From NCBI RefSeq assembly GCF_003334335.1, contig NZ_QOWQ01000003.1: a DNA stretch of 64,000 bases. One strand, 5' to 3'. Made by a program: the position numbers and the translations under genes. The number at the start of each line of letters is the position of its first letter. The stretch's first letter is position 1. Under the pieces are notes generated by a model that was not told the origin of the DNA, did no database searches, and saw nothing but the letters and a program-made list of their open reading frames with translations. Of this stretch, positions 1 through 9,103 are shown piece after piece. The stretch comes from Escherichia coli. Lineage in GTDB: Bacteria > Pseudomonadota > Gammaproteobacteria > Enterobacterales > Enterobacteriaceae.

Positions 1-216
1 TACTACCTGATGGAAGCCTACAAACACCTTAAACCGATTGCGCTGGCGGGTGACGCGCGCAAGTTTAAAGCAACAATCAAGGTCGCTGACCAGGGTGAAG
101 AAGGGATTGTGGAAGCTGACAGCGCTGACGGTAGTTTTATGGATGAACTGCTAACGCTGATGGCAGCACACCGCGTGTGGTCACGCATTCCTAAGATTGA
201 CAAAATTCCTGCCTGA
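1..216 (+). CDS. katE: catalase HPII, C-terminal end (5' part lies outside window)
   Basis: Open frame from position 1 to TGA at 214-216; translation ...[22 protein letters not shown]...[10 protein letters not shown] recognised as KatE C-terminus from memory. Confidence 0.8.
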
Positions 217-221
217 TGGGA

Positions 222-461
222 GGCGGCGCAATTGCGCCGCCTCAAATGATTTACATAGTGCGCTTTGTTTATGCCGGATGCGGCGTGAACGCCTTATCCG
301 GCCTACAAAACTGTGCAAATTCAATATATTGCAGGAAACACGTAGGCCTGATAAGCGAAGCGCATCAGGCAGTTTTGCGTTTGTCAGCAGTCTCAAGCGG
401 CGCAGTTACGCCGCCTTTGTAGGAATTAATCGCCGGATGCAAGGTTCACGCCGCATCTGGC
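222..461. repeat. cluster of REP (repetitive extragenic palindromic) units, BIME-like
   Basis: Perfect palindrome GGCGGCGCAATTGCGCCGCC at 222-241, then GCCGGATGCGGCGTGAACGCCTTATCCGGCCTACA-type units at about 273-306, 342-372 and 431-461; typical enterobacterial REP sequences between katE and chbG. Confidence 0.8.
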
Positions 462-473
462 AAACATCCTCAC

Positions 474-1235
<762 letters not shown>

Positions 1236-6545: not shown

Positions 6546-7373
6546 ATGACATTGCAACAACAAATAATAAAGGCGCTGGGCGCAAAACCGCAGATTAATG
6601 CTGAAGAGGAAATTCGTCGTAGTGTCGATTTTCTGAAAAGCTACCTGCAAACTTATCCGTTCATTAAATCACTGGTGCTCGGGATCAGCGGCGGTCAGGA
6701 CTCCACGCTTGCCGGAAAGCTGTGCCAGATGGCGATTAATGAGCTGCGCCTGGAAACCGGCAACGAATCACTGCAATTTATTGCCGTACGCCTGCCCTAT
6801 GGTGTTCAGGCCGACGAACAAGATTGCCAGGATGCCATTGCCTTTATTCAACCGGATCGCGTATTAACCGTTAATATCAAGGGCGCGGTATTGGCCAGCG
6901 AACAGGCATTGCGGGAAGCAGGCATTGAACTGAGCGATTTTGTCCGTGGCAATGAAAAAGCGCGTGAGCGGATGAAAGCACAATATAGCATTGCGGGTAT
7001 GACCAGCGGTGTCGTGGTGGGCACCGATCATGCAGCAGAAGCCATTACCGGATTCTTCACTAAATATGGTGACGGCGGTACGGACATTAATCCGCTGTAT
7101 CGTCTCAACAAACGTCAGGGTAAACAGTTACTGGCGGCATTAGCTTGCCCGGAACACCTTTATAAGAAAGCGCCAACGGCCGATCTGGAAGATGATCGCC
7201 CTTCTCTGCCAGATGAAGTGGCACTCGGCGTGACCTATGACAATATCGACGACTATCTGGAAGGGAAAAACGTACCTCAACAGGTCGCCAGAACAATAGA
7301 GAACTGGTATCTGAAAACCGAACATAAACGCCGTCCGCCAATTACCGTTTTCGATGATTTCTGGAAAAAGTAA
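6546..7373 (+). CDS. nadE: NH3-dependent NAD+ synthetase
   Basis: 275-aa ORF with PP-loop motif SGGQDS ([12 protein letters not shown]); recognised as NadE. Confidence 0.92.
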
Positions 7374-7418
7374 TAATTTGCACATATTGGATTGTGCGAA
7401 AAAGAGTAATTTGTTCAC

Positions 7419-7518
7419 GCCGGATGCGGCGTGAACGCCTTATTCGACCTATAAAACTATGCAAATTCAATACATTGCAGGAGTCGAATAGGCCTGACAG
7501 GCGTAGCACGTCAGACGG
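7419..7518. repeat. REP pair (BIME-like) downstream of nadE
   Basis: GCCGGATGCGGCGTGAACGCCTTATTCGACCTAT unit and inverted AGGCCTGACAGGCGTAGCACGTCAGACGG unit; the linker between them is near-identical to the one at 300-355. Confidence 0.75.
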
Positions 7519-7602
7519 TGTAACCTTTGTCATCGACCCGCCTCTTTTTTAATCGCTTCCCGCCTGTTACACTGGATAGATAACCAGCATTCGGAGTCAA
7601 CA

Positions 7603-9103
<1,501 letters not shown>

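Follow-up and report, generated by a model that had tools for sequence, protein, structure and literature searches.

Why do the sequences downstream of katE and nadE in Escherichia coli resemble each other so closely that open reading frames crossing them yield look-alike peptides? Here we address this question in a 64-kb stretch of genomic DNA (64,000 nucleotides; hereafter the window). We conclude, with a probability of about 95%, that the two sites are two ordinary, independent copies of the repeat BIME-1, and that they are alike because both belong to the BIME-1 family.

Genomic setting

The window is from a K-12-like E. coli: its first 8.6 kb differ from K-12 MG1655 at 4 of 8588 positions, and positions 1–1200 are matched at 100% in many RefSeq genomes. 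katE and chbG converge on an intergenic region at 217–473. Further genes are the rest of the chb operon, osmE, nadE (6546–7373) and cho (7603–8490); gdhA ends at 27802. Both elements have an extragenic, 3′-end location, one between the convergent katE and chbG, the other downstream of nadE, between nadE and cho. The K-12 MG1655 RefSeq record lists only CDSs across 1815800–1824500, with no repeat features and no REP or RIP label. The parts of the katE–chbG cluster and its neighbours are as follows.

1–216, plus strand: 3′ end of katE, TGA stop at 214–216 (ORF list and RefSeq annotation of identical or near-identical genomes)
220–243, no strand: P1 palindrome GAGGCGGCGCAATTGCGCCGCCTC, perfect over 24 nt; 90% match to 397–416
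258–272, plus strand: BIME-1 left flank GTGCGCTTTGTTTAT; 14/15 to the consensus of 65 family members
273–306, plus strand: Y REP with a CTAC tail (303–306); 34/34 to the family consensus
307–341, plus strand: L linker, 35 nt; 29/35 to the family consensus, z = 7.6 against shuffles
342–371, minus strand: inverted Z1 REP; 29/30 to the published Z1, GTAG on the plus strand at 342–345
372–394, plus strand: BIME-1 right flank GTTTTGCGTTTGTCAGCAGTCTC; 20/23 to the family consensus
397–416, no strand: P2 hairpin GCGGCGCAGTTACGCCGCCT, followed by TTGT (repeat search)
416–462, minus strand: third REP, degenerate and Y-like; palindrome at 432–462, CTAC tail at 419–422 (GTAG on the plus strand)
474–1223, minus strand: chbG, convergent with katE (ORF list and RefSeq annotation)

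REPs were scanned by Hamming comparison. Over 272–306, the katE Y REP agrees with the published Y sequence at 34 of 35 positions (PMC11208160). An octamer scan also picked out the REP-head-like octamer GCCTGATG at 211–218, which holds the last codons and the stop of katE. The nadE–cho copy has the same order of parts.

7404–7418, plus strand: left flank, degenerate; 10/15 to the consensus
7419–7452, plus strand: Y REP, decayed; 31/34 to the family consensus and 30/35 to the published Y
7453–7487, plus strand: L linker, 35 nt; 28/35 to the consensus, z = 7.4 against shuffles
7488–7517, minus strand: Z1 REP, decayed; 23/30 to Z1
7518–7540, plus strand: right flank, degenerate; 13/23 to the consensus

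A shared unit downstream of katE and nadE

The likeness of the two sites extends well beyond the linker. A repeat finder aligned 264–386 with 7410–7532 over 123 nt, ungapped and 81% identical, by far the longest direct repeat within the 64-kb window. The whole shared unit spans 258–394 and 7404–7540 and comprises a flank, a Y REP, the 35-nt L linker, an inverted Z1 REP and a second flank, with 104 of 136 positions identical (0.76). The linker proper (307–341 against 7453–7487) is identical at 29 of 35 positions. The 55-mer that the earlier note had quoted as the shared linker is present at 303–357, three positions away from the 300–355 given there, and is identical at 44 of 55 positions to its in-register partner at 7449–7503.

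The two copies differ in their state of preservation. With 126/137 positions agreeing with the family consensus and both GTAG and CTAC kept, the katE copy is intact, whereas the nadE copy is decayed (105/137): its Y tail reads CTAT (7449–7452) in place of CTAC, and its Z1 REP starts with ATAG (7488–7491) in place of GTAG, the tail-to-tail arrangement being kept. In both copies the correct REP type scores best, Y for Y and Z1 for Z1.

Identity of the repeat

In the literature of the 1990s, BIME-1, a dispersed and non-coding repeat of Escherichia some 137 nt long, went under the names RIP or RIB. Its defining parts are single z1 and y REPs on either side of a long linker, L (Ton-Hoang et al., PMC3333891), whereas BIME-2 consists of z2 and y REPs with short linkers in tandem copies (PMC3333891). 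Both sites in the window have a Y and an inverted Z1 REP placed tail-to-tail around a 35-nt spacer, a layout equal to the published BIME-1 definition. Each locus has one L, and there are just two L matches in 64 kb; these are therefore single units and not a tandem array. The sites had been described as a BIME-type composite repeat and not a protein family, which is right and can be made more exact: both loci are BIME-1.

To place the two copies within their family, the L core GCAAATTCAATANATTGCAG was scanned in one genome per species, which gave 80 loci, almost all in Escherichia species or Pseudocitrobacter. From Escherichia and Pseudocitrobacter, 65 distinct further full units share a common layout, and 48 of them have a 35-nt linker. 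Because the sample was collected by exact match to a 19-base core, that core is conserved among its members by construction; the flanking positions, and 12 L-like linkers (34–35 nt) found without the core, are independent of the retrieval. The consensus of the 65 copies reads, part by part, as follows.

Left flank: GTGCGCTTTGTTCAT
Y REP: GCCGGATGCGGCGTGAACGCCTTATCCGGCCTAC
L linker: AAAATCATGCAAATTCAATATATTGCAGAAATCAT
Z1 REP: GTAGGCCTGATAAGCGTAGCGCATCAGGCA
Right flank: ATTTTGCGTTTGTCATCAGTCTC

The linker as a proposed IHF site

The L linker contains, at ATTCAATATATTG (319–331) in the katE copy and at ATTCAATACATTG (7465–7477) in the nadE copy, sequence matches to 8 of the 9 specified positions of the IHF consensus WATCARnnnnTTR (PMC8407004). 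IHF binding is a described property of the BIME-1 linker (PMC3333891). The main text of an IHF/HU ChIP-seq paper (PMC3333857) mentions neither REPs nor BIMEs, and neither katE nor chbG.

A different identity for L is on file in Rfam, in which RF02751 (ES036/CssrF) is typed as 'Gene; sRNA'. The model, 43 nt long, corresponds to the L linker plus GTAGGCCU. It matches 307–349 with 55.5 bits and 7453–7495 with 42.9 bits, both above its gathering score of 37.6, and these two L linkers are the only Rfam matches at or above the gathering threshold in the 64-kb window. If L were an sRNA gene, its hairpin would act as RNA instead of, or besides, a DNA site for IHF. Such a role would accord with the inverted repeat TGCAA...TTGCA held by L and with the location of BIMEs in 3′ UTRs, about 80% of annotated REPs being reported as transcribed in one study (PMC4550694). 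The sequences of the family speak otherwise. Across 54 distinct linkers we detected no covariation supporting the Rfam hairpin, the score of 0.050 being reached by 496 of 500 shuffles, although the inner helix of the model falls inside the core by which the linkers had been retrieved. The three outer pairs of the model are mostly unpaired (in 52, 25 and 38 of the 54 linkers), and the katE copy itself breaks two of them. The sole variation in the inner helix, a T to C change at column 8 in nine sequences, breaks its pair and is uncompensated. A repeat is also a better fit than a gene for dozens of copies that are dispersed and differ in their flanks, and a literature search for ES036/CssrF returned no relevant paper. 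We therefore regard an sRNA gene as improbable. The conservation of L is at the level of sequence and not of structure, and the best reading of its sequence is that of a protein-binding DNA site, which IHF would bind and bend, as suggested by this conservation together with the 8/9 consensus match and the published work on BIME-1. In practical terms, a 43-nt stretch that behaves as a dispersed DNA repeat has an sRNA-gene entry in Rfam.

Population distribution and IS621 insertion

The two copies have different distributions. Every one of 5426 complete E. coli genomes has the nadE copy, which also occupies the orthologous nadE–cho site of E. whittamii, of Escherichia sp. E1V33 and of a divergent 'E. 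coli' lineage (~89% identity); the E. albertii nadE–cho site is without BIME-1 and has a plain hairpin. The katE cluster is found in about 2161–2170 of the 5426 genomes (~40%), and in the other genomes sampled, which include O157 and extraintestinal isolates, katE and chbG are separated by 46 nt that hold an unrelated hairpin. The nadE copy is old and decayed, and the katE copy intact and strain-variable.

The katE copy is also a target of IS621, a member of the IS110 family with a bridge-RNA recombinase, the natural target of which is ATCAGGCCTAC (PMC11208160). In the window this target lies on the minus strand at 342–352, within the katE Z1 REP, and on the plus strand at 27831–27841, within a Z1 REP downstream of gdhA; a target scan of the nadE Z1 REP found no site, the sequence there being GTCAGGCCTAT, two mismatches away from the target. 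The window itself has no IS621. The element interrupts the Z1 REP of the katE copy, at the CT core of the target, in 232 complete E. coli genomes, among them S40, in which the junctions on the minus strand read ATCAGGC-CT/TGTAT... and ...ACAGTAT-CT/AC. The remark that such elements can act as IS targets is thereby demonstrated for the katE copy.

S40 and 2013C-4361 carry a second allele of the katE–chbG BIME-1, in which 13 of 35 linker positions differ from the window, whereas the flanks compared (~100 nt upstream and ~120 nt downstream) are identical to it. IS621 is present in the allele of S40; in 2013C-4361 the IS position reads GTAG-AT-CCTGAT, a scar that IS621 might have left behind on excising imprecisely. 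It is possible, although we consider it doubtful, that the katE–chbG BIME-1 linker is actively exchanged between dispersed copies. If that were true, the locus would record linker replacement, by gene conversion or TnpA-REP strand exchange, tied to the gain and loss of IS621 in natural populations.

Relationship between the two copies and their reading frames

The katE and nadE elements are separated by 7.1 kb and share their orientation, and both have ACT at linker positions 4–6, where the family consensus has ATC. These features might point to a special relationship, through a recent copying event or local gene conversion. Family-wide comparison makes this very improbable. Mean pair identity in the family is 0.81, above the 0.76 of the katE–nadE unit, and 76% of pairs equal or exceed these two in identity; at the variable linker positions alone, 33% of pairs at least match them. 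Each copy has its nearest relatives elsewhere, those of the katE copy being family members L005 and L043 and those of the nadE copy the orthologous nadE loci L058 and L041, and the population histories are unlike (~40% against 100% of genomes). Two independent copies of one family account for the likeness.

Two open reading frames run through the units.

181–396, minus strand: spurious ORF, 71 aa, through the katE BIME-1
7342–7533, minus strand: spurious ORF, 63 aa, through the nadE BIME-1

Aligned by BLASTP, their products share 30 of 53 residues (E = 2e-11), including LRLSGL..SCN(I/V)LNLHSF(V/I)GRIRRSRRIR. This score, and the fact that the frames stay open for 63–71 codons, are what a real family of small arginine-rich proteins would have to recommend it, and we find such a family hardly credible. 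Over the repeat, peptide identity is 25–28 of 40–41 residues in all six frames, frame +2 is as open as the minus-strand frame, and the 23 mismatches fall on codon positions 1, 2 and 3 in the ratio 6:7:10, with no third-position bias. Because the six frames are equally alike and the mismatches are spread in this way, the likeness of the ORFs resides at the DNA level. The ends of the ORFs lie outside the repeat and are unrelated to each other, Pfam and NCBIfam searches of the peptides gave no match, and neither K-12 nor any of the listed RefSeq genomes has a CDS annotated for either ORF. Moreover, the first 'gene' is missing altogether from ~60% of E. coli genomes. The earlier note had put the matching peptides down to repeated DNA, and all of these results agree. 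The unit being a repeat, any long ORF that runs through it in the same frame gives the same 'peptide'; for annotation, BIME-1-crossing ORFs mimic peptide 'families' and should be masked, not annotated.

Chance resemblance of the linkers, which has the AT-richness of these intergenic sequences in its favour and nothing else, can be dismissed: the central linker 30-mer has exactly two sites in the window, 307–336 and 7453–7482 (2 mismatches), no match at three or fewer mismatches turned up in 100 dinucleotide-shuffled versions of the window, and the linkers score z = 7.4–7.6 against the family consensus, with 0 of 2000 shuffles as good. The proposal that the katE and nadE linkers are more alike than expected by chance is thus confirmed, the real partner being found in the window and in none of its shuffles.

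Neighbouring repeats

The katE copy is enclosed by two further palindromic segments, P1 (220–243) and P2 (397–416), which had been counted as parts of the REP cluster. They are not: neither matches any REP consensus at more than 22 of 35 positions, and they occur at this locus alone. We also ruled out another dispersed palindrome family, as the median is two places per genome, at this locus alone. P1/P2 are found solely in the 2170 genomes carrying this intergenic allele, and their single occurrence elsewhere in 745 kb of related DNA is at the orthologous E. albertii site. P1/P2 is a locus-specific duplicated hairpin. P2 is probably the ancestral hairpin of the katE–chbG intergenic region; its E. 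albertii orthologue is followed by TTTTAT. A simple promoter and terminator scan of 1–700 made no call, P2 included.

In the third REP, a 9-nt insertion (423–431) parts the palindrome from the CTAC tail. This REP matches the published Y at 31 of 35 positions in a gapped alignment, is 81% complementary to the Y REP at 272–302, and is base-paired to that Y REP in the predicted transcript fold.

A third REP cluster lies downstream of gdhA.

27811–27905, no strand: REP pair 3′ of gdhA, made up of a Z1 REP at 27811–27841 (plus), a spacer at 27842–27875 and a divergent REP at 27876–27905 (minus)

Its left REP matches the published Z1 at 29 of 30 positions, and its right REP matches Z1 at 22 of 30 and Y at 24 of 35. 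The pair is present in 3456 of 5426 genomes. Global alignment of its 34-nt spacer with the L consensus is equalled or bettered by 346 and 879 of 2000 shuffles in the two orientations, and the spacer scores 12.8 bits on the RF02751 model, below the gathering score of 37.6; a degenerate L is thus unsupported by either measure. The gdhA REP pair is not BIME-1. Of the three clusters that the earlier note had proposed to align, all have REP units, but the one at 27812–27904 is without the L linker. As a separate observation, the gdhA spacer contains GCACAATTCATTGCAG, a sequence similar to the L core apart from an extra base and the loss of 5 nt.

Function and spread

Predicted RNA folding is strong at both loci, with z = -7.3 for 214–473 and z = -3.7 for 7371–7602. 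In the literature, REPs are given context-dependent roles as 3′-UTR decay blocks and partial Rho-dependent terminators; their presence between convergent genes goes with raised expression of both genes but no general effect on half-life, and a recent study found the effect of REPs on mRNA half-life to be weak and context-dependent (bioRxiv 10.64898/2026.03.23.713779). By extension from this literature, the REP hairpins flanking the linker may, depending on context, block decay and partly terminate transcription in the 3′ UTRs of katE/chbG and nadE. A role as gyrase sites had also been suggested. However, the enrichment of gyrase cleavage is documented for BIME-2 (PMC6379681) and does not transfer automatically to the BIME-1 copies described here.

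TnpA-REP, the REP-associated tyrosine transposase, requires a GTAG tetranucleotide, and its cleavage sites lie at the inverted REP and in the linker (PMC3333891). From what is published of this enzyme, copies of BIME-1 would have been spread and reshuffled by such a GTAG-requiring transposase. GTAG stands at the foot of the imperfect palindrome in both REPs of the katE copy and in neither REP of the nadE copy (ATAG, CTAT). Since GTAG is kept in one and lost in the other, the katE copy is a potential TnpA-REP substrate and the nadE copy should not be, and the population split (~40% against all genomes) fits this division between an intact and a decayed copy.

BIME-1, the L linker, its IHF site, REP-derived ORFs, strain polymorphism of BIMEs and the targeting of REPs by IS621 have all been described already. 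The locus shows textbook behaviour and leaves current understanding unchanged.

Comparison with known systems

RF02751 differs from the elements described here in being typed as an sRNA gene; it looks like a transcribed BIME-1 linker and not a dedicated gene. With respect to the natural target of IS621, the katE Z1 REP has ATCAGGCCTAC and the nadE Z1 REP has GTCAGGCCTAT. BIME-2 likewise has extragenic REPs in alternating orientation, but differs from what we observe: among the REPs of the three clusters Z2 is never the best-scoring type, the spacers measure 34–35 nt where BIME-2 has the short S linker, and there are no arrays. REPINs or REP doublets, mobilized by RAYT (TnpA-REP), are likewise built from two inverted REPs round a spacer, with many dispersed copies and GTAG (PMC3333891; PMC3337134). 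Here the transposase gene lies outside the window, and the nadE copy, being without GTAG/CTAC, should no longer be a substrate.

The closest system is BIME-1 itself, from which the two copies do not differ in any substantial way. The katE copy sits within the duplicated P1/P2 hairpin and adjoins a degenerate third Y REP. The nadE copy has all the sequence features of BIME-1 but intact GTAG/CTAC, and the katE copy has every one of them: a Y and a Z1 REP in inverted arrangement, the L linker with its match to the IHF consensus, a single, extragenic unit, and both flanks.

Allelic variation between katE and chbG

The katE–chbG intergenic cluster, 257 nt in length (217-473), is present in a strain-dependent manner as a whole. 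Among complete E. coli genomes, about 60% have in its place a 46-nt spacer (loci L084-L087) that holds an unrelated hairpin, AAGGTCAC...GTGACCTT. Genomes with this spacer have a chbG that is 9 nt longer, and their katE ends in CCG GCG TAA, compared with CCT GCC TGA in the window, both of which read Pro-Ala-stop. A REP-head-like octamer, GCCTGATG, is found at window 211-218 and contains the katE stop codon.

The BIME-1 within the cluster (258-394), a repeat composed of a Y REP, a 35-nt linker (L) and an inverted Z1 REP between two flanks, also exists as a second allele, observed in strains S40 (L083 183-231) and 2013C-4361 (L088). The linker of this allele, AAAGTCGTATAAATTCAATGTATTGCAGTTTATTG, is different from that of the window at 13 of its 35 positions, and the flanks compared are identical to those of the window. 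In S40, the IS110-family element IS621 is inserted into the Z1 REP of this BIME-1, at the CT core of ATCAGGCCTAC (L083 225-1500); the same junction is found in 232 of 5426 genomes. The REP foot of 2013C-4361 reads GTAG-AT-CCTGAT, which might be the scar of an imprecise IS621 excision. A second exact IS621 target lies within the REP pair downstream of gdhA (27811-27905), a strain-variable pair found in 3456 of the 5426 genomes. The sites concerned are as follows.

Window 342-352, - strand: IS621 target in the Z1 REP of the katE–chbG BIME-1
Window 27831-27841: second exact IS621 target, within the gdhA-downstream REP pair
NZ_CP027347.1 1740049-1740690 (L088): strain 2013C-4361, second linker allele without the IS

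Elsewhere in the window, at 36626-36656, 11 nt separate GGCCTACAAT from ATTGTAGGCC, which point towards each other; these are REP tails only, without REP stems.

The corresponding locus of E. albertii (L002 8780-8960) lacks katE between cedA and chbG. There, the left arm of P1 (one copy, with P2, of the duplicated hairpin beside the katE–chbG BIME-1) is joined directly to the core of the linker L (GGCGGCGCAA|ATTCAATATATTGCAG); Z1 comes next, and then a P hairpin that has TTTT as its tail. This order appears to have arisen by deletion from the K-12-type arrangement.

Predicted transcript folds

The Y REP (272-302) and a third, degenerate REP (432-462), located 129 nt apart, are 81% complementary, and in the predicted fold they form a long-range helix that encloses L, Z1 and P2. 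A match to the Rfam model naRNA4/CssrE at 215-303 on the - strand, in which the P1 palindrome is paired with the Y REP, scores 39.7 bits, below the gathering score of 59.5, and stems from the REP content of that model. The BIME-1 downstream of nadE is bracketed by GAAAAAGAG and CTCTTTTTT (7398-7406 and 7542-7550), which pair with each other in the predicted transcript fold and may be the remnant of a terminator stem split by BIME-1 insertion.

BIME-1 in other taxa

E. coli-type BIME-1 sequences occur in assemblies labelled Desulfosporosinus sp. OT, Bacteroides MAG and Collinsella MAG (L012, L013 and L064). The Desulfosporosinus contig, 262 nt in length, matches the E. coli katE–chbG region, with a katE 3′ end 99% identical to that of the window. 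Contamination or mis-binning is the likely origin of these copies. Pseudocitrobacter species carry many BIME-1 copies (L019-L033 and L065-L071) with a signature of their own, in which the Y REP has the loop GTAAAC and the right flank reads GCAATGTTGCGTTTGTCATCA; the BIME-1 family therefore extends beyond Escherichia. Finally, whereas BIME-1 has been described as single-copy (PMC3333891), Escherichia sp. MOD1-EC7003 (L078, L079, L081 and L082) contains tandem arrays of Y-L-Z1 units, with a period of 115 or 162 nt and at least 5 units in the most extended.
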